Shown here piece after piece: positions 4,319 to 47,551 of a stretch of DNA of 64,000 nt. The stretch comes from Fistulifera solaris. Lineage: Eukaryota. Below the pieces are notes generated by a model, which saw only the letters and a list, made by a program, of their open reading frames with translations, searched no databases and was not told the DNA's origin. The position numbers and the translations under genes are program-made. Positions within the stretch are counted from its first letter, which is position 1. Each line of letters opens with the position of its first letter. The stretch is from the NCBI GenBank assembly GCA_030295235.1, contig AP026130.1:1178001-1242000 (forward strand), given 5' to 3'.

Positions 4319-5692
4319 TCACCTTGCGTTGGTGACGGCCACATCAAAATCTCGAGGATTCTGTGCGTAGCGTGCTTTTCGTTCCATACGTCGCGACAAA
4401 TCGTATCGATAATTCACCATGACGCCGAAACTGTTTTGCTGTCCGCGTGTAGAAGGATCCGCTTGTGTCACAATGCGAAAGACTTCCGCTCCATTGGTCA
4501 AATGAAACCGTGCGACTGGATCCAGTGGCTTGTAGCCTTCGTCTGGCGTCGTTTCGTCAACAATGTATTGTGTGGCCAGTTGATGAAGTCGTGTCTCTTG
4601 TTCACTCGAGATACTCTCTGTAGCGGCATCTTCCTCTTCTAAGCTTCGATTGAACTGTATTGTCAATTCGTGTTCCAAAGCAGGATGATTCGCCTTAAGC
4701 CACTTTCGAAAATGGGGCATGGGCGACAGCGTCACAAACTCATGCAAGCAAGGAAATTCCCCTCGCAACAAATTGACCGTCTCTGATATCAGCACTTCTC
4801 CGAGTCCAATCCCCGTCAAACCGCGCTCCAAGTTGCTAATGGAATAGAAAGCCGCTACCGTGGGTTGTTCGGTGGGTTGTGCCTCATGAATGGCACGCAT
4901 ACTGTCGGGAATGTCGGTTGCTTGGAGTGAAACATGAATGACCACGAGCGGCCGATCGAGCAAAAGGGATGCACAAGAGCATACACACGTCGATGTGGAC
5001 CAAATCGATTGTGTAAATCCTTCCAACCTTGCACTGGATGTACTGCCTCTTTCCGTACGATCCGTTCAATGACGGCGGCCGGTGTCTGGTCGTAACGGAT
5101 GCGTTGCGCAAGCAAGACGGACGGAGAAAACCACATGTTCAAGACGCGTCGCCAGTGTTGATCGATTCTCGTAATGCGCTCCTGGAGGGGGATCGAAGTC
5201 GCCGTCATTGTTCGACGGTGACCGTCGTAGAAATGCCAAGTACGTTTGAATATCAGCACGGGAAGCCAAAAGAAAGCGTAAGGCATCCGCCGTGGCCGTT
5301 TCTAGAAAGCAATCGATCAGAATGGAATAGAGAGGCGCGGAAGAATCACTTTCATGGCTTTCGTTTGCCAAATGATGAATAATTTCCCGTCGTTGACAAA
5401 TATCATTAGGTTGCGACAAGAGTGCCGGCAATTCTGTATATTGTCGATTTATGAATGTAATAATGTCACGCTGATGATCCGAGTGTTTCGACTGATGGTA
5501 ACGAAGGTCTTCAATTAGCTTTTGAAACGAATGCAAGAGTTGCGTGGAAGATTCATTCGTCGCTCTTTGCCAAGTTTTGTCGTCCTGAGAGGATACGAAT
5601 CGAAAAAGAGGCGCGGTTCGAGCGACTTTATAGTTGCTACACCTTCGCAGAATAAGACATTGAAATCTTAAAATCATTCTGGTATAAATCAA
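4319..5692 (-). CDS. MLYCD: Malonyl-CoA decarboxylase (split over three frames by apparent indels)
   Basis: EAVHPV..W.DL..RFGPHRRVY, AFYSISNLERGLTGIGLG, FVTLSPMPHFRKWL, LDPVARFHLTNGA, SFGVMVNYRY; mitochondrial-type N-terminus. Confidence 0.9.
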
Positions 5693-6716: not shown

Positions 6717-8243
6717 ATGAAATTAAGCAGCATCGTTTCTCCCTGCATATTCGTTTTTATTACAGAAACCGCATCTGCTTGGCTTTCCCTGACCACGAGG
6801 CAGAAACGTCATTTTATGGGCTCCTCTTCTACAATCCGCTTCTCGATTCCTTCATCTTCGACTCCCATGTTCCCATCTGCTACGAATAACAAAAATCCGC
6901 TTCCTATTCTACCCATTCCGCCGCCCATTTGTTCGACGGAACCAGGTTCATGGGCGTATGATACCATGAGTCGTCGGGTCGACGCGGAGATTTTGCAGCG
7001 TACCTGGGACGACAATCAAGATCTTTGGGGGCAATGGAGTACGGAGCATATCGATGTCGTACAACGATTTGAGTTATTACGAAACGAGTTACAAAATGCC
7101 GCGGCGACTCCTTTACAGCATTTGGAAGAACCCGTAATTAAATCAGCCGAACGAGAAAAGGAATATCAAGAATGGCAACAAATCTTGGAACCGTACGTTT
7201 CCAACCAAGATACCTGGCTGACGGCACCGTGGATGGTAACAGAATTCTTGATCTATCGGAAGCTCATGCAAGCCATCGGTTACTGGGATCCGAAATCTCC
7301 AGGATATCAGCACGATCCCTTTCTGGCTCAAAAACAAGCTGGATTGCATTCGTCGGTTACTTCGGCGGAATCTGTATTGGCCAAACTTTTTTATCAGACC
7401 CCGGAAGTTCTCCACGAGGAATCGCTAGAAGCTGGTTTGGCACTCGCCACGAGTATTGCTTTGTGGGGCAACAAGATGGATTTGTCGTTGTGGCCCGCCG
7501 ACAAAGAACAGCGCAACAGTGATATCTTTTCCAAGATACTCGAACAAGCCAGTCAGAATTTATTGCACGATGATACACAAGTCCTCCGCCGGCACTGTCA
7601 GATGTTAAAAGAGCGAGGAGGAGGACAAGTGGATATCATTGTTGACAATGCCGGATTCGAACTGGTGACGGATTTAGCTCTCGCTCATTATTTGATCGAA
7701 TCGGGCATTGCAACGACGGTTACGTTTCAACTCAAATCGCATCCGACCTTTGTGTCAGATGCCTTGGAAAAGGATTTGCTGGAAACTGTGGCGTATTACG
7801 AACAGCTGGATCCCGCAGAATTTCCGGCGTGTCACGCGGCCGGTCAAAAATGGCGTCAATTTTTACAAAAGGGTCAATGGAAGTGCCACGAAGACAACTT
7901 CTGGGTGCAACCGTATGCCATGTGGGATATGACCGAACCGTTGCGATCGGATCTGGTCCGGCGCTGTGATTTAGCGTTTGTGAAGGGCGATGCCAATTAC
8001 CGACGTCTTTTGGGCGATCGGACCTGGGACTATACGGCGCCTTTCCAAGATGTAGTGGGAGCTTATTTCCCTTGCCCAGTGTGTGCCTTGCGAACACTCA
8101 AAGCCGAAATTGGTTGTGGTATGGATGCGGAGCAAGTGAAGCGAGCACAAGAACTGGATGATCAGTGGATGGTGAATGGACGATTTGGTGTGGTGCACTT
8201 TGGTAGGGGCACCAATGAGAGAGACCAGCTTTCTAACGCGTAA
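6717..8243 (+). CDS. DUF89/ARMT1-like damage-control phosphatase, probably plastid-targeted
   Basis: WLTAPWMVTEFLIYRK, DPFLAQKQ, ALWGNKMDLSL, IVDNAGFELVTD, PTFVSD, FVKGDANYRRLLGDR, ALRTLKAE; signal peptide ending ASA-W then a Ser/Arg-rich transit-like stretch. Confidence 0.9.
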   Translation: MKLSSIVSPCIFVFITETASAWLSLTTRQKRHFMGSSSTIRFSIPSSSTPMFPSATNNKNPLPILPIPPPICSTEPGSWAYDTMSRRVDAEILQRTWDDNQDLWGQWSTEHIDVVQRFELLRNELQNAAATPLQHLEEPVIKSAEREKEYQEWQQILEPYVSNQDTWLTAPWMVTEFLIYRKLMQAIGYWDPKSPGYQHDPFLAQKQAGLHSSVTSAESVLAKLFYQTPEVLHEESLEAGLALATSIALWGNKMDLSLWPADKEQRNSDIFSKILEQASQNLLHDDTQVLRRHCQMLKERGGGQVDIIVDNAGFELVTDLALAHYLIESGIATTVTFQLKSHPTFVSDALEKDLLETVAYYEQLDPAEFPACHAAGQKWRQFLQKGQWKCHEDNFWVQPYAMWDMTEPLRSDLVRRCDLAFVKGDANYRRLLGDRTWDYTAPFQDVVGAYFPCPVCALRTLKAEIGCGMDAEQVKRAQELDDQWMVNGRFGVVHFGRGTNERDQLSNA

Positions 8244-8254
8244 TAATTAAGCAG

Positions 8255-9208
8255 CTACTGCATTACTTTGTTGCGATAATAACACAAACCCCAAGCACAG
8301 ACAGACTTGCTCTTGAGTATAGCAACAAACGCATCGATATCAATTTCATCGTCCTTATCGCCCTTCCAATCCACAAGCTCCTTTGCGGCCGCACATTCGT
8401 ATTGCTGCAAGGGATACTTTTGCGAGGGAATGGGCAATATTTGACTATCGGGTACGAGCTGACATGTATCTTGCAAGTAATCGACGATTCGCGTCACATC
8501 CTGTAACGTCACGCGCTCGCGTCGTCCCTGGAGAACTTGATAGAGTATTTGAATTCGCTCGGGAGTGGATGAGTTCAAAGCCAGCGAAAGTGCCACCCAC
8601 CAGAATTCTACCGGCATAGCATCCAGTGTTGTTCGATTGTGTTTTTGCAAAGCAGCGACGATGACGCGATCAATGAGATGACCCAGTTCTACCGTAAAAG
8701 CCGGCCCTTTCATGCTGGACATGACACGACGTACGGCTTCGACAAAAGCTGGATAGGTCATTTCCTCGTCGGCGACTTCGGTAATCAATTTCCGAAATAC
8801 ATCGGGTGTTAATTGTGCATTCGCAAAGCGTAAATCGTCAATTTCGAGAGGATCCAATGCGGCTTGTGTTTCTATGTCGTCACGAATCGCGTTGCGTTTG
8901 TTGGTGTTCATGTAAGATCGGACGAGATACGCAATCAATAGACCGATCGAGGACAAGAAAATAGCACCGAGATTGTCGAGAAATACGTTGCTTTTGACGG
9001 GTGTTTTGTTGAGTGTTGTGGCTTTGGCTTCTTCGGCACTCGCGATGGATGCGGTGGAAGAAGAAGAAGACGAGCAGCGCACGGCGAAGGTACAAAGAAA
9101 GGGTCGGGAGAACAGAAGATGAGGTGCGGCCGCTCTCTCTACCGACGCGCCTACTCGTCTCAACAAATAAGACTTTGTCTTTGTGAAAACTAATGAACGA
9201 GATGCCAT
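8255..9208 (-). CDS. Hypothetical single-pass membrane protein, likely mitochondrial
   Basis: 317-aa ORF; Arg/Ser-rich presequence, one TM (LGAIFLSSIGLLIAYLV), degenerate EF-hand-like C-terminal segment. Confidence 0.7.
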   Translation of the reverse strand: MASRSLVFTKTKSYLLRRVGASVERAAAPHLLFSRPFLCTFAVRCSSSSSSTASIASAEEAKATTLNKTPVKSNVFLDNLGAIFLSSIGLLIAYLVRSYMNTNKRNAIRDDIETQAALDPLEIDDLRFANAQLTPDVFRKLITEVADEEMTYPAFVEAVRRVMSSMKGPAFTVELGHLIDRVIVAALQKHNRTTLDAMPVEFWWVALSLALNSSTPERIQILYQVLQGRRERVTLQDVTRIVDYLQDTCQLVPDSQILPIPSQKYPLQQYECAAAKELVDWKGDKDDEIDIDAFVAILKSKSVCAWGLCYYRNKVMQ

Positions 9209-9632
9209 GGTAAAAATTCTGATGGCCTGTCAAAACCCAGCACAACCTAACAACGTCGAATAATGCGGCGGCTGGGGAAATATTTGATCCGTGACTTCGC
9301 AATCCAGTCGCGAAAAAAGTAATATACATTTAAGCCTATAGTAAATACGGAATCTCCAATATACAGAGACGATAAAGTCGTTTGTTGTAGACGCTGCAAA
9401 AATAATTGAGTTGTATTTGGTATTGTAAAGACTATGGTCTACGATCCTAGAGGACATGGAACGGAGCTCTGATAGCAAGAGCTTGCTCAGGAGAAGACCG
9501 ATTCATGAATGAAATACAGGGTTTATCGTGATTATGGAAAACGAGGACTTCGTAAAGATCTCATTCGCGAGAGGTTTGATGCGCGTATTGCAAAATGCTG
9601 CTAGTAAGAAAATCTGCTATGCTGACCAACCC

Positions 9633-10955
9633 ATGACACCGTGTTCTGATTCCCTGAAACCAGCACAAAATCATTGTGAGATGAAAACATCAGGTCCAAA
9701 ATTTCTGGACCAGTAAAACAGAATTTCTGTATGACGTGATCGCATGTTCCAAATTTTCTGGAACTCGTACAGAAACACTGTATGTTAACAAACGCCGTCG
9801 TTTAAACTTCTTGAAGTCAAACCGCAATTCTGCATGATCTGATACACTGTGTCCAGATTTTCTGCAACATGCACAGAAGCTCTGAGAGATGAAAACGCCT
9901 GGTCCAGAATTTCTGGACCAGTCAAACAGATTTACTGTATGACAAGATCACTATTTCCAGATTTTCTGGAATTCGCACAGAAACGCCATTTGATAAAAAA
10001 AAACGCCGTCGTTTAACCTTCTTAAAGCCATACAGCATCTCGGTAGGATCCGTAACACTTTGTCCAGATTTCCTGGAACCAGCACGAACCTATCTGTGAG
10101 ATGACAACACCTGGTCCAGAATTTCTGGACCAGTCAGACAAGATCACTATTTCCAGATTTTCTGGAATACACACAGAAACGCTGTTTGACGAAAACCGCC
10201 GTCAAGTAAACTTTTTGAAACCATCCAGCATCTCGGTATGATCCGTAACACTATGTCCAAATTTTCTGAAACCAGCCGAGAAGCTCTGAGAGATGATAAC
10301 ACATGGTCCAGATTTTCTGGACTAGTCAAACAGATTTTCTGTATGACGTTATCGGTATTTCCAGAGCCATACAGCATCTCGGTAGGATCCGTAACACGTT
10401 GTCCAGATTTCCTGGAACCAGCACGAACCTATGTGAGATGAAAACACCTGGTCCAGAATTTCTGGACCAATCAAACAGAATTTCTGTAAGATGTTGTCGG
10501 CATTTTTCAGATTTTCTGGAATTTGCACAGAAACGCTGTTTGATGAAAAACGCCGTCAATAAAAATTTCTTGAAGCCATACACCATCTCGGTAGGGTCTA
10601 TGATCCGATACACTGTGTCCATATTTTCTGGAACCAGCACAGAACCTCTGTGAGATGAAACACCAGGTCCGGAATTTCTGGACCAGTTTCTGTATGACTT
10701 GATCGCAATTTCCAGATTTTCTGGAATTCTCACAGAAACGCTGTTTGACGAAAGGACCGTCGTTTAAAACTTTTTGAAGCTATACAGCATTTTTTTATAT
10801 AATCCGTTACACTGTTTCCAGATTTCTGGAACCAGCAAATATGAACCAATCTGTGAGATGAAAACACCTGGTCCAGAATTTCTGGACGATTCAAGCAGAA
10901 TTTCCAGATTTTCTGGAAATCACTCAAGAACACTGTTTGGTCAATAACGCCGTCT
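9633..10955 (-). repeat. Tandem array B: about 6.5 copies of the same family as array A, inverted orientation
   Basis: ggtccagaatttctggac (with variants) at about 9693, 9901, 10112, 10306, 10450, 10666, 10870; reverse complement matches array A (gattggtccagaaattctggaccaggtgttttcatctcacaga). Confidence 0.95.
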
Positions 10956-16137: not shown

Positions 16138-16668
16138 TCATCGCTTTCGCGTTGCCATAAATCGCCAAGTCAACAAGGAGATCACAGCCACTGCTGCGGC
16201 AGCTTGGGCGCCTTTTCTCCAGTTCTCTTCCCTTAGGTTTGCAGCTTTACCACCCTGCTCGAAAAGACTTCGCATAGGCGTCAACACTTGCACCGCTTCT
16301 TGAATGAGTGCCTTATCAATATCAAGCTCTTCAAACGTGCTTCGCAAGTGTTTCATCATCAAATCAAAGTGACTTTCGTTCAACCCCATTTCGAATAATT
16401 TGGCGTGTTTGTTAAGAACAAGATGTTCGACATCCAAGTCTTTCGGCATGGTCGTAAAGGCAATCGACATGAAATTAAACTGATGCCATTTAAGAACCGA
16501 AATGTTATTTCCGTGGAAAAAACGTTGCAGTTCCGGATCTTGCAGCAGCCGGTCGTAAAATCGATCCACGGCCGCATTCAGAACTTGCTTTCCTCCGAGT
16601 TTGGCCAAGAGTTCGTCCTTGCGTGAACTCTGGCTGCTGTGTAGGACTTCGGCACTCGCTAATGTCAT
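16138..16668 (-). CDS. Group I truncated (2/2) haemoglobin, GlbN-like, with C-terminal hydrophobic tail
   Basis: LGG..L.AAVDRFYDRLLQDPELQRFF, HQ..F, proximal His in KHAKL, GLNESHFD...HL..T; tail GAQAAAAVAVISLLTWRFMATRKR. Confidence 0.9.
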   Translation of the reverse strand: MTLASAEVLHSSQSSRKDELLAKLGGKQVLNAAVDRFYDRLLQDPELQRFFHGNNISVLKWHQFNFMSIAFTTMPKDLDVEHLVLNKHAKLFEMGLNESHFDLMMKHLRSTFEELDIDKALIQEAVQVLTPMRSLFEQGGKAANLREENWRKGAQAAAAVAVISLLTWRFMATRKR

Positions 16669-31984: not shown

Positions 31985-33169
31985 ATGTTGTTTCGATCCG
32001 TCACTTCCGCTGTATTCCGTAGCTCAACGATGACGACGGGACGCACGAAACTCTCACAACACGTGCCGCGAGCCAGTTTCTCGGTCATGTCCGATGCCAT
32101 TCAGTCGTTGAAGGGTGTTCACTTTGTTTCGACGGATCAATTGAGGTGAGCGAAGTGTGTGTACTTGTGTGTGTTGAGCTGTGAAGCTCGCCGCGTTCGA
32201 CCGACATTTTTGCTACTCGTTACACGTCTGACACTTTCTTCGAATCTTTTTCGGATGATTCTCACAGCAAAGAAGAATTACAAGGCTTGCTCGATCTTTC
32301 GAAATATTACAAAGATACTTACAAGGCCAAGGGAGGATTAAAACCAAAGCCACTCGAAGGTGATTCGATGGCTATGATCTTTCAAAAGCGTTCGACACGA
32401 ACCCGTGTGTCGACCGAGACCGGCATCGCCATGATGGGAGGACACGCTCTGTTCTTGGGGCCTTCCGACATTCAACTCGGAGTCAACGAAAGTATGCGCG
32501 ACACTGCCTTGGTTCTTTCGCGATTCAATTCCATCATTCTGGCGCGCGTCTACAGTCACAATGATATTACCGAGTTGGCCAAATACGCGACGGTCCCCGT
32601 CATCAACGCTCTATCGGATCTGCATCATCCGTTACAATCGCTCGCCGATCTGATGACTCTGCAGGAACACTTTGGAAAGGATTTGTCAGGAAAGACCGTC
32701 GCGTGGGTCGGTGACGGTAACAATGTATTGCACGACTTGGCACTCGGTTCGGCGATTCTCGGCATGAATGTCAATATTGCCACTCCGGCGGGCTTTGAAT
32801 GCAACCCGACGATCTTGGCCAAGGTCAAAGAACTAGCGGCAAAGCACGGAGGAAAAGTCATGACGACGTCGGTGGCGGCCGATGCGGTGGCGAATGCGGA
32901 TGTCGTGGTGACCGACACGTGGGTCAGCATGGGACAGGAAGACGAATATGCGGCACGCTTAAAAGCGTTTGATGGATACCAAGTCAACAAAGAACTCATG
33001 AGCAAGGCCAACCCGAACGCTGTTTTTCTTGCACTGCCTTCCTCGTCATCCGGAAGAAGTGGCCGATGAAGTCTTTTACTCTCCTCAGTCCTTAGTCTTT
33101 GATGAAGCCGAAAACCGCATGTGGACCGTCATGGCGGTGGCGGCGGCTCAGTTGGGTAAAGTCGAATGA
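31985..33169 (+). CDS. OTC: Ornithine carbamoyltransferase, mitochondrial (urea cycle)
   Basis: [40 protein letters not shown] (after a T-run indel about 33023), EAENRMWT; presequence exon, intron 32146-32267. Confidence 0.96.
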
Positions 33170-39822: not shown

Positions 39823-40279
39823 GACTCGGTATGACTGCTTTGTCTATTTACGGTGTTTTCACTGATTGATGGCTCAATGTTATGATAGAAGAAAAAGATA
39901 ATGTTGTGACCATTCTTCATTCTTTCAATATTAGAAAGGAAAGAATGAAATACTGGTAATGAAGAAAGCTGGTTGACCCGAAGATCGAAGAACTTTGACG
40001 ATAGCCTCGCGCAATAAGTAAAAAATCCATCCCTGTCGTACCGGTTGCAAATTTTCTTCCCGCGCGGTCATCGCGGTCATCGTCGGTGCAAGGACGAACG
40101 ACGGCACGCAGAAGAAAAACGTCCGCCGCGAATGAATACGAAAAAAGTGAATAGATGCGCTCCTATCTCCTATCCATCATTTGCAGTGCATCTCATAATA
40201 CTCTCTATCATTCAATTGCCGCGATAGATAGTCTCATTGCTTTCTAAACGAACCCATCAGCTTGATAGGAAGAGGCGGA

Positions 40280-41713
40280 ATGACGACTAGAACAGAACAA
40301 ACGGATGATAATTCATCAAATGATTCGCCATCGAAGCGACCCCGCCCCGAACTATCGCCTCTCTACAATCCCGAAGTGCTTCCCAACGAACTCAAGAATG
40401 TTGACTTTACACAACGCATCACATGGGGCAAGTATGCTCCTTATACGGAAGAAGTCTTGCCGCTGAAAGCTCTGGATGCACCAGCGACTCCGAAGCACCG
40501 ACTGGAAATGCATATACACAATTTGTCGAATCGAGCACGCGCGGGCACCATTCATTTACAACGACCATCATCACGGCCTATTCCTACACCCATGTTCATG
40601 CCGGTGGGTACAAAAGGGTGTTTGAAAGGTGTCACCATTGATGAATTGATGCATTGTTTGGACTGTCCCATCATTCTAGGAAATACGTATCATCTCGCCA
40701 TTCAACCGGGGACCGAACTCATTCGCGAGCAAGGTCAATTGCGAAAGTTTCAAGGAAATGGGAATCATAATTTGCTCACGGATTCGGGAGGGTTTCAAAT
40801 GGTATCGCTTTCGAAGTTATCGAATATTTCGGAAGAGGGAGTCACCTTTGAGAATCCATTCGCCAAAGGCGAAACGATGTTACTCAAACCAGAAGATTCC
40901 ATACGTCATCAAACCAACATTGGGGCAGATATTATCATGGCTTTGGATGATGTTGTCAGTAGTGTGATTGCTGATCATGATCGGTTTCGGGAGGCAACGT
41001 ACCGTACGCTGCGTTGGTACGATCGATGCCTACAAGCCAAGGCCGAAGGTGATCCGGATCATCAACAGAATCTTTTCCCCATCGTTCAAGGTGGACTAGA
41101 TACGCAGTTGGGTGGTTTGCGAGAACAGTGCCTGGCAGGATTCCGGAACCGCGATCAAGATGTAGCGGGATTCGCCATTGGAGGATTGGCGGGAGGTGAG
41201 TCGAAAGATGACTTTTGGAGAGTCGTCAATCAGTGTTGCAAAGCACTGCCCGATGACCGACCACGCTATTTGATGGGAGTGGGCTATCCACTTGACTTGG
41301 TTGTGTGTACCGCACTTGGGGTCGACATGTACGATTGTGTTTATCCAACGCGCACAGCGCGCTTCGGTGTTGCTTTAATCAATGATGGAACTTGTAAGCT
41401 CAAAGCCCAAGCGTGTGCAACGGATTTTCGGGTCATTCAAGAGAACTGTAAATGTCAGGCCTGTCAACTAGGAATCACTCGATCGCGGTTGCACTTCATG
41501 TACAAGACGGGGAATCCGGTTGCGGTGCAGTTGTTGACGCAACACAATCTGACTTACATGATGCAATTGGTGGGTGATATGCGAAACGCTATACTGGAGA
41601 ACCGATATCCGACATATGCACGAGCATTTGTTAAAAATATGTTTGCCGAGGAAGCAGTACCTGGTTGGGTGGTAGATGCATTAAACGAAGCTGGAATCTC
41701 GTTGCAGGAGTAA
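40280..41713 (+). CDS. QTRT1: Queuine tRNA-ribosyltransferase catalytic subunit
   Basis: TPMFMPVGT, LGNTYHL, LTDSGGFQMVSL, PIVQGG, GGLAGGE, PRYLMGVGY, DMYDCVYPTRTARFG, CKCQAC..HN. Confidence 0.96.
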   Translation: MTTRTEQTDDNSSNDSPSKRPRPELSPLYNPEVLPNELKNVDFTQRITWGKYAPYTEEVLPLKALDAPATPKHRLEMHIHNLSNRARAGTIHLQRPSSRPIPTPMFMPVGTKGCLKGVTIDELMHCLDCPIILGNTYHLAIQPGTELIREQGQLRKFQGNGNHNLLTDSGGFQMVSLSKLSNISEEGVTFENPFAKGETMLLKPEDSIRHQTNIGADIIMALDDVVSSVIADHDRFREATYRTLRWYDRCLQAKAEGDPDHQQNLFPIVQGGLDTQLGGLREQCLAGFRNRDQDVAGFAIGGLAGGESKDDFWRVVNQCCKALPDDRPRYLMGVGYPLDLVVCTALGVDMYDCVYPTRTARFGVALINDGTCKLKAQACATDFRVIQENCKCQACQLGITRSRLHFMYKTGNPVAVQLLTQHNLTYMMQLVGDMRNAILENRYPTYARAFVKNMFAEEAVPGWVVDALNEAGISLQE

Positions 41714-41808: not shown

Positions 41809-43038
41809 CTATTGACTTTCGGCTTCGACTGCCTTGTGCGGGCCATCGTATACTGAGAAATCAGTGTATCCTTTGGCACCAGTGGGAGCATACCAGGTCT
41901 CGTAAGCGGCCTCGGGCTCCAAAGGCCAATTGTGCGTGAAACGCTCCACGAGGTCAGGGTTCGAAATGTACAAGCGACCAAACGCGCAGAGATCCGCGGC
42001 ACCCGAGCGGACCATTCCCTCGGCCGTGTCTTTGTTCAAACCGACGTTGCACATAATGGGACCGTCGAATACTTTACGAAAGTCAGCGACAGTGACGACC
42101 TTGCATTTGTTGTGGAATCCGAAACCAAGTCCATCCATGACGTGCAAGTAGGCAGGCTTGTATTCGTTCATGACCTTGGCAAAATAAGGGAACGCAACAT
42201 CGTTGTCTTCACTGCCCATGTCTCCAAAAGACACCGTTGGGCGAAAAGCGGAAACCAATACGGTTGGCCGGGTACGCACCACTTTCCACAATGGCCTCAA
42301 AGATTTCCTTCAAAATACGAATTCGGTTATCAAGACTGCCTCCGTAGTTGTCCGTGCGTTTATTGGTGGAAGACTGAAGGAACGTATCAATGAGGTAACC
42401 GTTGGCTGCGTGAATTTCAATTCCGTCGAAACCGGCTTCTTTCGCGAGCTTGGCGGCATTGACGTAGTCGGCAATCGTCGCCTTGATCTCGTCGACGGTC
42501 AACTCCGAAGGAACTTCGGCTTCCGCATCTTCACCATTGATGGTTCGGACCTTGACACCGGACATGGCGATCGGCGACGGAGCGAAAGTCTTGTTGGTGG
42601 ACGGATGGTGAGAAGAGTGTGACTGACGACCCATATGCCAAAATTGCATAAAGATGATTCCTTCTTTCGCATGAACGGCATCGACTACCTTCTTCCATCC
42701 TTCCACATTCTCCGGGAAACGAATGTGGGGGCGTTGCGCCAGCCACAGCCGGCCTCCGATATGGCCGTAGCTTCGGTGATAAGCAAACCGCCTGAAGCAC
42801 GCTGGGTGTAGTATTCGACCATGAGATCATTGGGAGTAGTGCACACAACATCAAAAGGATTTTCGGTAGGAGTGCATCTGGAAGATTCACAAGATCGCGA
42901 GCGAGTTACTTAGATGCTGGCTCGTTCACAAGATAGAAACGACGTTTCAATGACTTACCGACCACGCGTCAAAGGAGCAAGAACGACACGGTTCTTGAGC
43001 TCAAGGTCTCCGATAGTGAATTTGGATAGAAGCTGCAT
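41809..43038 (-). CDS. Old Yellow Enzyme family flavin oxidoreductase (OPR/NemA-like); intron and apparent frameshifts
   Basis: LKNRVVLAPLTRGR, QFWHMGR, EAGFDGIEIHAANGYLIDTFL, NKRTDNYGGS, AFGRLYISNPDL, GYTDF; intron 42878-42958. Confidence 0.93.
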
Positions 43039-44643: not shown

Positions 44644-45329
44644 TGCTGCTAAAGTGTAAGGCTCTTGCTACACCAATTTGTGCTGACTGGGTTGAAACGT
44701 TTGTTTTGCCTTTCTCTTTATATTATTATTATTTTGACAAGAACGACGACAAGATGGAAGATGGATGGATGGTTCCATTTTGCATTTTCTTTTCTCTCTC
44801 CACTCTCCACTTGTCGAAGTTCAACCATAAAGAACACAACAGGAGAAGTTGTCTGGGGAAGACCGCACACAATGTGGATCATACTCTACTATGCCATTGA
44901 TACTGTTGAACGACTGACCGGACATAAAAACCGGCCCTTTTGGCATCATCTTTAGTAGTAAATTGTGAGAAGACTACCTGGTACCTGGTATGTTCCATCT
45001 ATCCCAGTAGACTTTCTCACTTCTCCGCCGTTCGCACTGCTTCGGCGAACTTGTTCTCTCCGCACTCCGCACTGTTTCTCCGCCAACCAGTACCGTCCGG
45101 GACTTCTAGACCAATCAGATAACAGTATTTTCTTACTGTATTTATAAACAGTATATGACTTTTTCCGTCCTTCGTCCGTACTGCTTGTTCTAATGGGACT
45201 TCATCAGTCACGCTTTTAAGATCACAAAAACAGACCGCGACTATGACGGCGGCAAAAATAAAAGCGGCGGAGCAGCGCAGAGCACAAACGACGTTTACTT
45301 GATCTTACAAAGCAACCAAGAATGCAACA

Positions 45330-47551
45330 ATGAATGAGCCGAATCCCAAGCGACCGAAAACAACGTCTCAGTCGTCACTGTCGTCTTTCTTTACAATAAA
45401 AACAACCGTACAAAAGGAGACGCAAACAAAGGACAAAGACGTATCTTCTTCTCAAAAAATCGATACATCGTCAAATGAACCCATTATTCCTCGGAGTGTC
45501 CCTGCCTCGTTAAAGGCAACATGGAATGTTTATCAGAATGCTTGTATTTACCGAAAAGTGAGAGGAGAAGTGAATGAGAGAACCAAACTAGCGGCGTTTG
45601 ATTTAGATGGCACTCTGTTAACATGGCGAATTGACGGCTGGCCGAGTAAGTTCGAACACTACGAGTTGTGGAATGCTACCGTCATTGACAGGCTTCGTCG
45701 ATTGTATGATGAAGAAGACTATCGGCTGGTTGTATTCAGTAATCAAGGATTGATACGACAAGCTTTCACGGGTGTGAAAGCGACGTTTGTCAAGTCGCTG
45801 CTCGAGTGGTTCGCGAATCTGCTCGATCGTCCTCTTTCCGTGGTCTTGTCGACAAGCAAAAGAATGGCTTTCATAAGCCTTCTCACAAAATGTGGAACGT
45901 AGCGGAAGAATGTTGTTTTGGTGGACGCACTATGGATGTTTCTTCCAGTTTCTTCGTCGGGGACAGTATTGGAGGCGATGATGATCCACAAGGAGGCGTG
46001 GACATTGGCTTTGCTCGTGCAGTGGGGGAACACCGAAATGCGAACTTACGCTTCTACAGCCCGACTGAGTTCTTCGGACCGAGTTCGAAGCAAAAGCGCG
46101 ACAAAGGGAAGGTTGCAGTGACTTACGAGAAGCCTCCAGCTGCAGTGCTTCAGACGAGGGCTGCACTTGTCAGTGGCTATCTGGAAGGACCAATCATGCT
46201 TATTCTATGTGGAGCACAAGGGTCTGGTAAAAAGTACATTTTGTGACAAATTACTAGGGAAGAATGATGCATGGGTCCATCTATCACAAGACACCATCAA
46301 CAATGGAAAACCGGGAAAACGAGAAATGGTGGAAGAAACAGCCGAGAAAGAACTCCGTGCAGGACGATGTATTGTCGTGGATCGCATGCATCTGGATGAG
46401 ACACAGCGTTCGGTATTCGTAAGTACAGCGAAGCGGGTAAATGTACCGGTTCATGCGCTGGTCCTATCAACTTCAACGTCTCTCCTAGCGTCCCGGGTGA
46501 AACGCCGATCAAATCATCCTGCTGGTGTTGAGGGCGAAAAAGGAGTGAAAGTTGCGATGATATCAGCATCCAAAATGGTTATGCCGACGTATACGGAAGG
46601 CTTTGCATTGATTAGCGTTACAGCGACAGAGCAAGGCGTAGCTCGATTTGTTGACCAATACAGCAAAATTTCGACGGCAGAACCGAATACGACTTCGATA
46701 CTGAAACAGTTTGATCTCCCGCAAATTAATATCCCATCCGTTATATTAGGAACGATGAAAATGGGCAGGAAAAGTGCTGCAGAGATTGTATCGAAGGCCA
46801 GATCGTTGGGATTCGCAGGCGTTGATACTGCGCCAACTTACAACAACGAGATAGAGGTTGGTCGAGGAATGGATAATGATATGTTTTGTGTGGTCAAAGT
46901 GCCGAAGCGCGCATCGACTGCTGAGGATGTGCAAAAGAGCTATGCAATAGTCTTTCAAGCTTGGGGCGAAAGCAAGCTGACCTTCTATTACTGCATTGGC
47001 CATCGGATTCTGAAACACTAAAATCTGTTTGGCAAGGAATGGAGACTTGTGTCAAAGAAGGATTTGTTAAGGCTCTTGGGGTCTGCAACTTTAGTGCTAA
47101 GGCTTTGGCAGGACTAATACCAATGTGCTCGATTACCCCGTGCATCAATCAAGTGGAACGCCATCCTTTCCTTCCGCAATGGGATCTTGTCGACTTTTGT
47201 GCACAGAACGACATTTTGCTGCAGGCTCACACACCTTTGGGTCAAGGCAATAACGATCTCTGGGAAGATCCAAGTGTGCAACAAGTGGTGGCATCGACCG
47301 GTCTCTCGCCTGCAAAGGTTTTGCTTCTTTGGAATCTTCAACAAGGGGTAGCTGTGGTGCCAAGATGTAGCTCAGAAGAACATTTGGCCGATATTATGGA
47401 ACTCTTCAAAACAGCAGCGTCTAGCGAGGCCTTATTAATCGCAGACGATTTGATGGAATTGAACGGCATTAGTCGTACGTGCAGGTTTATTGCGCCGCCC
47501 TTCATGTTTGGTTCTTCGAGTTACTGCTGGGCGACGAATGCGAACAAGTAG
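45330..47551 (+). CDS. PNKP-like DNA 3'-phosphatase + P-loop kinase fused to an aldo-keto reductase (three apparent A-run indels)
   Basis: AAFDLDGTL, VFSNQ, HKP, FFVGD..D (HAD); LCGAQGSGKST, SQD, VDRMH (AAA_33/PNK kinase); GVDTAPTYNNE, VVKV, LLLLHWP, LGVCNF, NQVERHP (AKR). Confidence 0.85.

Follow-up and report, generated by a model that had tools for sequence, protein, structure and literature searches.

The diatom Fistulifera solaris carries, on the + strand of the window analysed here (the whole stretch of 64,000 nucleotides), a gene at 45330..47551 whose product joins a PNKP-like pair of domains, a DNA 3'-phosphatase followed by a polynucleotide 5'-kinase, to a C-terminal aldo-keto reductase (AKR). 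That this architecture is genuine, i.e., an intact single gene with the three domains in this order and conserved in diatoms, can be regarded as practically certain. PNKP is a core enzyme of DNA strand-break repair and, to our knowledge, the accessory modules known for it are protein-recruitment domains. The union of a catalytic carbonyl reductase with PNKP throughout diatoms may indicate an undescribed repair of oxidised DNA ends; diatoms are photosynthetic organisms under oxidative stress, and such an end-repair activity could matter for the stability of their genomes. The 5'-aldehyde terminus is abundant and long-lived, and no specific repair enzyme for it is described in a 2025 review (PMC12564780, section 2.5); the Fistulifera PNKP-AKR is a concrete candidate for this missing enzyme.

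Reading frame and distribution of the fusion gene

As given, the window presents the locus as four + strand open reading frames alternating between two frames (45330-45902, 45806-46246, 46167-47021, and 46961-47551), the last of them closing with the stop codon TAG at 47549..47551. The three frame breaks coincide with short A-runs, at 45858..45861 (one A missing), at 46229..46233 within the Walker A codons of the kinase (one A too many) and at 46933..46936 (one A missing). Miscalls had been suspected in the original prediction in the A-runs near 45860, 46230, and 46935, and each was corrected by a single A, at 45857, 46229, and 46932, when contigs from independent public sequencing runs were aligned to the window. 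An A was inserted after 45857 in contigs of three runs (depth 33.5/33.5 in X1, 12.8/12.8 in X2, and 3.37/3.37 in X4), one base was left out at 46229 in two (36.9/36.9 in X1 and 11.7/11.7 in X2) and an A was inserted after 46932 in the same two (12.9/12.9 in X1 and 6.4/6.4 in X2). Several of the correcting contigs differed from the window in 0 other letters, and the run contigs across the gene showed no joints within 45330-47551. The corrected frame, an intronless single ORF of 740 codons, is identical to the deposited Fistulifera solaris protein GAX15617.1 (740 aa); a tblastn comparison with the window was colinear over the gene, and its AKR part was 100% identical to P0097. As had been claimed, the junction between kinase and AKR lies inside the single ORF 46167-47021, and the ORF listing and its translation evidence neither a stop at this junction nor a Met at the start of the AKR. 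The locus is one intact intronless gene, and all three of its frame breaks stem from homopolymer errors in the assembly.

The breaks present in the window as given are what would be expected if the fusion were unreal, whether because the gene had decayed into a pseudogene through true frameshifts or because two or more neighbouring genes happened to be read as one. This explanation is barely credible: all three breaks disappear in the contigs of independent runs, the deposited protein is intact, the junction contains no stop and no Met, and the same architecture occurs in at least 120 relatives, including transcripts labelled complete. The locus is neither a pseudogene nor two genes, and the Pfam matches together with the identity of the corrected frame to GAX15617.1 bear out the reading of one gene for a three-domain protein. 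In practical terms, homopolymer indels in this assembly disrupt real genes.

All three Pfam families were found in 85/96 matches to the protein and in 120/120 among the matches listed, and the databases hold at least 120 proteins with the three families; every named source of the fusion is a diatom. The search for this architecture in relatives, as had been proposed, thus returned it abundantly, MMETSP transcripts included: three MMETSP ORFs with all three families (P0026, P0085, and P0304) are labelled 'type:complete', implying a single transcript in these relatives. Three apparent forms with kinase and AKR only (P0043, P0051, and P0240) begin within the last part of the HAD domain and were set aside as probably truncated gene models. 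The statement that no description of the architecture was known is upheld by the literature searched, in which no paper on a PNKP-AKR fusion was found, but it does not extend to the databases, where GAX15617.1 was already deposited. Wide prior annotation had been named as a ground for refutation, and it is partly the case, since the families are assigned in at least 120 proteins while the names are uninformative: the deposited protein appears in UniRef as 'NADP-dependent oxidoreductase domain-containing protein' and its relatives at JGI as 'DNA 3'-phosphatase', with one (P0081) auto-named methylglyoxal/glyoxal reductase. The architecture is already in databases, under names that do not reveal it.

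The PNKP part and the N-terminus

The HAD-type DNA 3'-phosphatase domain (Pfam PNK3P, 45585..46075, + strand), identified by Pfam, NCBIfam, alignment and solved relatives, contains motif I DLDGT (45600-45614), HKP (45872-45880) and motif IV GDS..DDD (45959-45985). It is followed on the same strand by the P-loop polynucleotide 5'-kinase domain (Pfam AAA_33, 46184..46694), supported by Pfam, alignment and solved relatives, with the Walker A motif GAQGSGK(S)T at 46211-46240 (the segments GAQGSGK and KSTFCDK of the two frames together span 46211-46250), the catalytic Asp in SQDT (46284-46295) and the DR pair (46380-46385). In the uncorrected frames the PNK3P match is split between ORF1 (E 3.4e-11, 43.6 bits, profile 1-91) and ORF2 (1.2e-6, 28.8 bits, profile 88-161), both above the Pfam cut-off of 22 bits, and AAA_33 is matched in ORF3 with E 2.6e-12 and 47.7 bits (cut-off 27 bits). 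The DLDGT phosphatase motif, the GSGKST kinase motif and the AKR tetrad named in the original prediction were all located and are near-invariant in relatives. In an alignment of 96 sequences the phosphatase residues D91 and D93 are kept in 81/96 and 77/96, the remainder being mostly gaps, and N138, K183, and D212 in 85, 87, and 89; the kinase residues K301, D321, and D351-R352 are kept in 95/96, 96/96, and 96/96, respectively. Judged from this alignment, each of the three domains has kept its catalytic residues across diatoms.

Among solved structures, residues 80-380 are closest to mouse PNKP, with which they are colinear over its residues 53-344 (E 7e-20), and the kinase alone matches the solved structures 9d8a/9drz (E 2e-19), which are those of a Mucorales RNA 5'-OH kinase according to PMC11571804. 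Mammalian PNKP (3zvl, 1yj5, and 3u7e) and the diatom protein share the colinear arrangement of a HAD 3'-phosphatase followed by a P-loop 5'-kinase, as well as DxDGT, Walker A and the catalytic Asp. The diatom protein differs in having 'HKP' for 'RKP' in the phosphatase and 'SQD' for 'NRD' in the kinase, in the relative orientation of its domains, which deviates in the predicted model (Foldseek TMt 0.40, rmsd 14 Å), in the additional C-terminal AKR, and in a PIP box at the N-terminus in place of a detected FHA domain; none was found by Pfam in ORF1. The N-terminal FHA recruitment domain is known only from animal PNKP and is not known from the yeast and plant relatives. The NCBIfam PNKP equivalog model TIGR01663 (PNK-3'Pase) scored 96.9 bits, below its threshold of 502.8, and by this model the protein is no equivalog; in sequence terms it is a divergent member or a relative of PNKP.

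The N-terminus holds a putative PCNA-binding PIP box, QSSLSSFF, at residues 14-21 (45369..45392, + strand), pointed to by the motif itself, its presence in relatives and the predicted disorder of the region. PIP boxes follow the consensus Q-x-x-[LIM]-x-x-[FY]-[FY] and lie in disordered regions; residues 1-41 of the AF2 model have pLDDT below 50, and this stretch also holds a basic PKRPK segment. The strict motif was found in 60/87 relatives, compared with 0.05/87 expected after shuffling, and it was missing even in relaxed form in 27/87 (24 distinct), which take in all 13 relatives whose N-terminus carries a long extension, named Thalassiosirales included. This conserved element, new here, may be a site of PCNA recruitment. 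We infer that the Fistulifera protein is the diatom form of PNKP, drawn to replication and repair sites via PCNA.

Alternatively, the protein might not act on nucleic acids and the HAD, P-loop kinase and AKR domains might form a small-molecule pathway of sugar or metabolite repair that merely resembles PNKP. The HAD-IIIA and AAA_33 families contain many metabolite enzymes, the cut-off of the PNKP equivalog is not reached, and the HAD domains of the Myxococcota fusions described below match models of metabolite phosphatases nearly as well as PNKP. Very little probability is assigned to this alternative, since both domains are closest to solved polynucleotide enzymes (PNKP along a colinear stretch of 300 residues, and the RNA 5'-OH kinase of Mucorales), a canonical PIP box is conserved in the relatives counted above, and related protist PNKPs are joined to TDP1, a DNA-end enzyme. 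A search for an unfused PNKP among shorter proteins, word-limited and weak, points the same way, although it is too limited to argue against a second PNKP in diatoms: all 16 matches to the PNKP part were fragments or distant.

The reductase domain and its predicted contact with the kinase

The AKR domain, DkgA/YvgN-like and of ~280 aa, occupies 46713..47548 (+ strand) and was recognised by Pfam, NCBIfam, alignment, solved relatives and Foldseek. Its Asp and Tyr are found in DTAPTYNNE (within 46818-46850), its Lys in VVKVP (46890-46904) and its His in LLHWP (46988-47002), followed by NQVERHP (47147-47167) and the cofactor-loop segment VPRCSS (47357-47374). The third frame break divides the Aldo_ket_red match (Pfam cut-off 24 bits) into a piece in ORF3 (profile 2-85) that at 19.5 bits falls alone under the cut-off and a piece in ORF4 (profile 98-282) with 76 bits. 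The closest solved structures are 2wzm, DkgA and YvgN (E 1e-32 to 1e-29); DkgA is also the closest NCBIfam model, although with 133.4 bits against a cut-off of 425 for the equivalog NF008598 the domain is not a member. Like DkgA, the glyoxal reductase YvgN and the M. smegmatis AKR 2wzm, it is a barrel of ~280 aa with the Asp-Tyr-Lys-His tetrad and NQVE.HP; unlike these stand-alone enzymes, of which the nearest share about 28-38% identity with it, the diatom AKR is fused behind a polynucleotide kinase. The tetrad is kept at D499 and Y504 in 94/96 sequences and at K523 and H556 in 93/96, and the NQVE.HP region together with the tetrad in 93-94/96. Around the clamp for the NADPH 2'-phosphate, Lys/Arg679 and Ser681 are retained, whereas position 685 of the cofactor loop is an invariant His where 2wzm and 3b3d have the clamping Arg, which speaks against a firm assignment of the cofactor. 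The median net charge of the fusion AKRs, taken as a proxy for DNA binding, is 0, compared with -5 in 18 stand-alone AKRs, with overlapping ranges. We infer that the AKR domain is catalytically active, as a carbonyl reductase that draws on NAD(P)H and works on break-associated aldehydes.

The AF2 model of the full-length protein (pTM 0.67, pLDDT 85) recovered AKRs in Foldseek at TMt 0.75-0.88 and mouse PNKP with E 4e-21. When the AKR was modelled on the kinase as a complex, the median score was 0.77 and the best of 3 controls reached 0.00; the individual runs gave 0.00, 0.77, and 0.78, so that 1/3 failed to score, with a partner pLDDT of at least 80 and a stated run-to-run contact agreement of at least 0%. 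In the calibration of this score, the mark was reached by 51/78 solved pairs and 2/108 mismatched pairs. The predicted interface links the AKR to the kinase as well as to the helix between the domains through AKR residues 465-468, 589-595, 605, 616-630, 671-673, and 705-712, which by our reading lie mostly on barrel-side helices, away from the mouth of the active site. Searches of solved structures with the PNKP part and with the AKR part found no comparable complex, and the packing of the AKR against the kinase is a new prediction.

The Myxococcota fusion and the proposed aldehyde substrate

A second fusion of the same three domain types in one polypeptide was found in Myxococcota. A search with PF08645 gave 33 matches in 31/301 sampled genomes, and 7/8 of the long-frame matches examined are ordered AKR, AAA_33, HAD (loci L084-L088, L090, and L091), an order permuted relative to the HAD-kinase-AKR of diatoms; kinase before phosphatase is the order of phage T4 Pnk. 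Among solved structures the kinase-HAD part is again closest to mammalian PNKP (6.7e-20, in two stretches in permuted order), and the small-molecule phosphatases GmhB and histidinol-phosphatase match the HAD domain almost equally well (E 1e-17 to 1e-21). The AKR belongs to a different, PRK10376-like subfamily and is 25% identical to the diatom AKR; the ~190-300 codons ahead of it gave no Pfam match. Since no significant pairwise similarity was detected between the diatom and Myxococcota proteins beyond the AKR, the Myxococcota fusion, also new here, most likely arose independently. In both fusions the AKR adjoins the kinase and not the phosphatase. This comparative genomics argues that aldehyde reduction may belong to end healing in some lineages. 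A bacterial copy of the diatom order was also sought, with profile A1 (diatom kinase+AKR), and was rejected: the 53 loci obtained in genome contigs were all AKR-only, the matches in 116/301 sampled Myxococcota genomes covered the AKR part only, and six long open frames contained the AKR alone (kinase in 0/6). The permuted fusions surfaced only via PF08645 and not via this profile.

A weak resemblance to the Kv_beta subfamily (TIGR01293, 1e-10) was noted for the Myxococcota AKRs, and the Kv-beta subunits of potassium channels are a precedent for an AKR with a sensor or structural role. By analogy, the main task of the AKR might be to sense pyridine nucleotides or to serve as a structural module, tuning the activity or stability of PNKP to NADPH/NADP+, for which turnover of a substrate would not be required. 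The tight predicted interface with the kinase and the invariant His685 in place of Arg in the cofactor loop would agree with this role. It is nevertheless improbable in our judgement, given that the retention of tetrad and NQVE.HP in nearly all sequences is the signature expected of catalysis, an argument that is not decisive, as Kv-beta likewise retains the AKR tetrad.

The preferred mechanism is a catalytic one acting on the 5'-side of the break. A break made at C5' bears a 3'-phosphate opposite the 5'-aldehyde. When deoxyribose is oxidised at C5', a nucleoside 5'-aldehyde terminus remains, which the AKR would reduce to a 5'-hydroxyl. The adjacent kinase would phosphorylate this 5'-OH, and the phosphatase would take the 3'-phosphate off the opposite end of the break, giving a 3'-OH/5'-P nick that a ligase could seal directly and at which no nucleotide is lost. 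That the AKR turns 5'-aldehyde break ends into 5'-OH, a substrate of the kinase, is held tentatively; the 5'-end route is preferred because the AKR adjoins the kinase in both fusions and because reduction of a 3'-aldehyde makes no PNKP substrate. We know of no AKR that acts on a nucleic-acid terminus. Going by the names of the matches, AKRs of the DkgA/YvgN-like subfamily appear to be small-molecule enzymes, which counts against a role at DNA ends, as may the charge of the fusion AKR, only slightly less acidic than that of its stand-alone relatives. The barrel-side position of the predicted interface, the complex run at 0.00, the His at 685, the relatives lacking a PIP box, the likeness of the Myxococcota HAD domains to small-molecule phosphatases and the scores below the NCBIfam equivalog cut-offs likewise weigh against the mechanism. 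The 5'-aldehyde is a major product of C5' oxidation with a half-life of days, and long-patch BER is the sole repair described for it (PMC12564780, section 2.5); borohydride is reported to reduce the 5'-aldehyde terminus to a 5'-OH terminus (PMC4227780). Long-patch BER (pol beta strand displacement and FEN1) deals with the same lesion as that proposed for the AKR, but it is non-specific and replaces nucleotides (PMC12564780, section 2.5), whereas the proposed route would restore the terminus by reduction and then phosphorylation. The broader notion, that PNKP-AKR is the first dedicated enzyme for a 5'-aldehyde DNA (or RNA) terminus, reversing C5'-oxidation breaks without excision and reached independently by diatoms (in a PCNA-tethered form) and Myxococcota, is slightly more doubtful.

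A fusion of PNKP to a maker of its substrate would have a precedent in chlorarachniophytes, where proteins of Amorphochlora amoebiformis (P0176) and Bigelowiella natans (P0161) have, as in the diatom protein, the C-terminus of PNKP joined to another enzyme. The partner is in this case the tyrosyl-DNA phosphodiesterase TDP1 and not an AKR. The 3'-phosphate produced by TDP1 is a known substrate of PNKP according to table 1 of PMC12564780; for the AKR the corresponding link, drawn by analogy, is only proposed.

The original prediction had placed the AKR elsewhere, on 3'-unsaturated aldehyde ends and base propenals, which in our opinion is the less coherent chemistry. In a wider version of this reading, the AKR would reduce aldehydes on the 3'-side of the damaged strand or within it (3'-phospho-alpha,beta-unsaturated aldehyde ends produced by AP lyases, ring-opened AP sites, and 5'-dRP), averting cross-links while PNKP completes BER. 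PMC3300018 places PNKP in AP-lyase-dependent BER, where such aldehydes arise, and PMC12564780 describes the reactivity of 3'-PUA and the DNA-protein cross-links; the conserved tetrad and the PIP box are compatible with this role. Its probability is rated low, however, considering that a reduced 3'-PUA or AP site is neither a 3'-phosphate nor a 5'-OH and would leave a blocking group to be removed, that the AKR lies beside the kinase in both fusion orders, and that the predicted interface involves the kinase and the inter-domain helix. Both routes are hypothetical, the one from 5'-aldehyde to 5'-OH to 5'-phosphate fitting the domain layout better.

Free aldehydes are the other possible substrates. 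Diatoms make polyunsaturated aldehydes, and the AKR could detoxify these or base propenals, malondialdehyde and methylglyoxal, having been fused to PNKP for concentration where oxidative damage occurs or for co-regulation with repair, with no substrate passed between the domains. Its closest characterised relatives (DkgA, the glyoxal reductase YvgN, and Rv2971) are small-molecule reductases, the auto-given name of P0081 is that of such an enzyme, and the catalytic tetrad is conserved. We consider this role unlikely, since it leaves unexplained both the independent fusion of the same activities in Myxococcota with another AKR subfamily and the predicted rigid docking of the AKR on the kinase, and a PCNA tether would give a soluble detoxifying enzyme little gain.

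The gene neighbourhoods of the seven Myxococcota loci gave too little to build on, the neighbours being unrelated apart from two. A weakly matched AddB-like 'probable DNA repair protein' (E 1.2e-14, below cut-off) is encoded in divergent orientation at 2/7 loci (L085 and L086), and a conserved protein of ~1070 aa without an assigned family lies downstream in 3/7.

An intact gene behind three assembly errors

The region 45330-47551 (+) of the Fistulifera solaris window contains four overlapping forward-strand ORFs that alternate over two frames, ORF1 (45330-45902), ORF2 (45806-46246), ORF3 (46167-47021) and ORF4 (46961-47551). In Pfam searches, the PNK3P phosphatase family (the HAD 3'-phosphatase domain) was split between ORF1 (profile 1-91, E 3.4e-11) and ORF2 (profile 88-161, 1.2e-6), AAA_33, the P-loop 5'-kinase domain, fell within ORF3 (2.6e-12), and the aldo-keto reductase (AKR) family was divided between ORF3 (profile 2-85) and ORF4 (profile 98-282; 76 bits vs a cut-off of 24). 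The motifs quoted in the original prediction, which proposed a fusion of polynucleotide kinase/phosphatase (PNKP) with an AKR, were all found at the expected coordinates, and the kinase-AKR junction does lie inside a single uninterrupted ORF; no separate start codon was detected near the beginning of the AKR in the window sequence of ORF3.

By tblastn, the closest database protein is colinear with the window and switches frame at three A-runs, which had been suspected of being miscalled. The frame breaks were checked by aligning contigs from four public sequencing runs, belonging to two studies, one of them a metagenome. At each of the three sites, all contigs that cover it depart from the window by a single A: one is inserted behind 45857 (runs X1, X2 and X4), one base is left out at 46229 (X1 and X2) and another A is inserted behind 46932 (X1 and X2). 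Apart from these positions, several of the contigs match the window letter for letter, evidence that the breaks are assembly errors. No intron was observed inside the gene in the aligned contigs, and the window translation is essentially identical to the deposited F. solaris protein GAX15617.1 (740 aa), with 100% identity in the AKR part and the other differences located at the frameshift edges. Because the run contigs fix all breaks and the translation matches GAX15617.1, the true gene is a single intact intronless ORF. That the locus is a pseudogene or a set of separate genes is extremely improbable, being refuted by the run contigs, the intact deposited protein and the existence of relatives with the same three families.

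A fourth A-run indel was detected 5' of the start codon, where contigs add one A behind 45225 (X1, 15.1/45 depth; X2, 9.11/9.11; A-run 45226-45230). One X1 contig omits 79 bases in this region (45234 to 45314) with non-canonical ends, CC..GC, and this skip may reflect different lengths of alleles or homoeologs in the 5' region, not an intron. Elsewhere in the window, an Old-Yellow-Enzyme-type NADH:flavin oxidoreductase (PF00724, 41809-42703, -) falls on two overlapping ORFs that are out of frame with each other (42209-42703 with profile 80-234 and 41809-42297 with 282-341); this looks like one more assembly indel in a homopolymer, or perhaps an intron. OTCase (32287-33066) and malonyl-CoA decarboxylase (4319-5689) also look truncated. 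The genes encoding an ARMT1-like damage-control phosphatase (6717-8240, +), a queuine tRNA-ribosyltransferase (40262-41710, +) and a bacterial-like truncated globin (16138-16665, -) are ordinary nuclear genes with no evident tie to the fusion.

A second version of the gene, ~90% identical, is present in the run contigs, for instance in several from X2 and in X1 record 4 (29 differences in 337 bases). Fistulifera solaris is allodiploid. Comparison with the run contigs and the database relative P0001 (window 45949-46766) revealed that the first 300 residues of P0001 are near-identical to the window and its kinase region is only 83% identical (38 differences in 740 residues overall), a mosaic that suggests exchange between alleles or homoeologs.

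Conservation of the fusion and recruitment to DNA

The fusion proved to be conserved in relatives and is not confined to this locus. PF08645 (PNK3P), PF13671 (AAA_33) and PF00248 (AKR) occur together in 85 of the 96 longer matches to the junction-spanning ORF3, the others being without PF08645 (8/96) or PF00248 (3/96). A 48-member profile retrieved 167 proteins at E <= 1e-30, with the three families in 120/120 of the matches listed, and when 1.84 billion representatives were scanned exhaustively with HMMER, only 142 proteins passed the same threshold, the top ranks being members of the PNKP-AKR family or fragments thereof. Every match with a named organism is from a diatom, including raphid pennates (Fistulifera, Cylindrotheca, Nitzschia, Pseudo-nitzschia, Amphora, Epithemia and Mayamaea), Thalassiosirales (Cyclotella, Stephanocyclus, Conticribra and Skeletonema) and Attheya. 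Three matches (P0026, P0085 and P0304) are MMETSP transcript ORFs marked 'type:complete', each with all three families.

In the 96-sequence alignment, the HAD residues D91 (81/96) and D93 (77/96, the rest mostly gaps), as well as N138, K183 and D212, are near-invariant. The same applies to the kinase residues G295...G300-K301-S302 and R393, while D321 and D351-R352 are present in 96/96 and the AKR residues D499, Y504, K523 and H556 in 93-94/96. As judged from this pattern, the three active centres appear to be under selection, and not the product of decay or accidental read-through. Three environmental proteins of 637-763 aa (P0091, P0247 and P0259) retain kinase and AKR and read 'FQRDGT' at the HAD nucleophile position; either the phosphatase may have degenerated in their lineage or their N-terminus may be mis-modelled.

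The PIP box consensus is a motif for interaction with PCNA. A canonical match, QSSLSSFF (residues 14-21; 45369-45392, +), precedes the HAD domain, and the strict motif occurs N-terminal of HAD in 60 of the 87 family members whose HAD motif could be recognised (0.05/87 expected from shuffled N-termini). In the 48-row alignment A2, Q14, F20 and F21 are at least 90% conserved, although these rows come mostly from motif-bearing proteins and are not independent. The 27 members without the box, which also lack a relaxed version, include all 13 with long N-terminal extensions, those named being Thalassiosirales, and 6 with clearly truncated N-termini. Among Cyclotella, Stephanocyclus and relatives (P0105, P0109, P0060 and P0064), 250-520 extra residues, lacking both a Pfam match and any PIP-like motif, precede HAD, and the recruitment mechanism may differ in Thalassiosirales. 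Animal PNKP is recruited through an FHA domain, whereas no FHA was found by Pfam in the diatom protein, which has the PIP box in its place. This putative box would tie the protein to DNA, and we infer with good confidence that it is the PNKP of diatoms, acting on DNA ends at PCNA-marked sites. A word-limited search among shorter proteins for an unfused diatom PNKP gave 16 matches, all of them either fragmentary or distant.

Domain relatives, predicted docking and other fusions

The mouse PNKP catalytic fragment is colinear with residues 80-380 of the diatom protein (E 7e-20), and the kinase alone matches 9d8a/9drz (2e-19), which the available text of PMC11571804 identifies as a stand-alone Mucorales polynucleotide kinase acting on RNA 5'-OH ends. 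The AKR part is nearest to small bacterial-type AKRs (2wzm, DkgA, 2,5-DKG reductase, YvgN and Rv2971; 1e-32 to 1e-29). It departs from them notably at one position: where aligned AKRs clamp the NADPH 2'-phosphate with Arg, the diatom fusion has an invariant His (H685). The nearest NCBIfam models, PNK-3'Pase TIGR01663 (9.4e-28) and DkgA (7.6e-39), both miss their equivalog cut-offs by far. In Foldseek, an AlphaFold2 model from the 48-sequence alignment (mean pLDDT 85, pTM 0.67; residues 1-41 disordered) matched mouse PNKP (E about 5e-21) as well as AKR structures (TMt 0.75-0.88). With PNKP the TMt was only 0.40 at 14 Å rmsd, which indicates that the individual domains correspond and that they are oriented differently relative to each other.

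When residues 60-455 (PNKP) and 462-740 (AKR) were folded as two chains, three runs scored 0.00, 0.77 and 0.78 (median 0.77; best of 3 controls 0.00), relative to a mark reached by 51/78 solved and 2/108 mismatched pairs; partner pLDDT was at least 80 and run-to-run contact agreement is stated as at least 0%. The confidently predicted interface involves the inter-domain helix 265-284 and C-terminal kinase elements 427-446 on the PNKP side and residues 465-468, 589-595, 605, 616-630, 671-673 and 705-712 of the AKR, a prediction that supports, without proving, a fixed kinase-AKR arrangement.

A protein atlas pointed to bacterial clusters with the same three families. Searches with the diatom profile matched only AKRs; when 301 sampled Myxococcota genomes were searched with PF08645, 31 of them gave 33 matches, and 7 of the 8 long-frame matches examined encode AKR, then AAA_33, then HAD/PNK3P in a single frame. 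The best solved relative of this kinase-HAD module is mammalian PNKP (6.7e-20), with the domains matched in permuted order, and the HAD domains are nearly as similar to metabolite phosphatases as to PNKP. The Myxococcota AKR is of a different subfamily (PRK10376-like, DkgA weak), and in pairwise comparison with the diatom protein only the AKR stretch is common (25% identical, E 2e-5). Most likely, therefore, these three activities came together on two independent occasions, from different parts. The AKR adjoins the kinase in both fusions.

Gene neighbourhoods in Myxococcota were uninformative, save for a weak AddB-like neighbour in 2/7 loci: at loci L085 (333-3635, -) and L086, a divergent ~1100-aa protein with a PD-(D/E)XK nuclease domain, weakly matching the AddB-like 'probable DNA repair protein' TIGR03623, adjoins the fusion gene. 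A conserved ~1070-aa protein lies downstream in 3/7 loci (at 6977-10192, +, in L085), with no match in Pfam, NCBIfam or PDB.

Two MMETSP transcripts from chlorarachniophytes, P0176 (Amorphochlora amoebiformis) and P0161 (Bigelowiella natans), encode 1119-1159 aa with PNK3P, AAA_33 and a C-terminal Tyr-DNA_phospho (TDP1) domain, one being named 'PNK FHA domain-containing protein'. TDP1 leaves a 3'-phosphate that is processed by PNKP (available text of PMC12564780), and PNKP-TDP1 is a related precedent, another case in which one lineage has PNKP fused to an enzyme that processes ends.

Candidate roles of the reductase

The diatom protein is a PNKP that carries a PIP box and an additional catalytic domain. 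The favoured, tentative reading is that its AKR turns 5'-aldehyde ends into a kinase substrate. Oxidation of deoxyribose at C5' breaks the strand and leaves a nucleoside 5'-aldehyde; the opposite side of such a break bears a 3'-phosphate, which would be the substrate of the phosphatase. According to the available text of PMC12564780, this aldehyde is among the major products of sugar oxidation and has a half-life of days; its one known route of repair in vitro is long-patch BER by pol beta and FEN1, which is non-specific. Borohydride reduces the 5'-aldehyde terminus to a 5'-OH terminus (available text of PMC4227780), and an NAD(P)H-dependent AKR could do likewise, giving exactly the kinase's substrate. 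Together, the three domains would turn a 3'-P/5'-CHO break into a 3'-OH/5'-P nick that a ligase can seal. Such a route would account for the AKR beside the kinase in both fusion orders, and for why the enzyme recruited was an aldehyde reductase and not a nuclease or lyase.

Against this route, we know of no AKR that acts on a nucleic-acid end, and the diatom AKR domain differs little in acidity from its stand-alone relatives, being marginally less acidic. Detoxification of free aldehydes near damage is a somewhat unlikely alternative. Reduction of 3'-unsaturated-aldehyde ends, as originally predicted, or of AP sites is unlikely, since it gives no PNKP substrate and fits the AKR-kinase adjacency poorly. 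A role as a Kv-beta-like NADPH sensor or structural module seems quite improbable. Function in a small-molecule pathway unrelated to nucleic acids is very improbable, as the PIP box and the polynucleotide-kinase affinities speak against it.

The architecture had been considered undescribed, and a full-text literature search, with subscription journals outside its reach, retrieved no report of the PNKP-AKR combination; the protein itself, however, is already in databases as 'NADP-dependent oxidoreductase domain-containing protein' (UniRef), 'DNA 3'-phosphatase' (JGI relatives) or hypothetical (NCBI).
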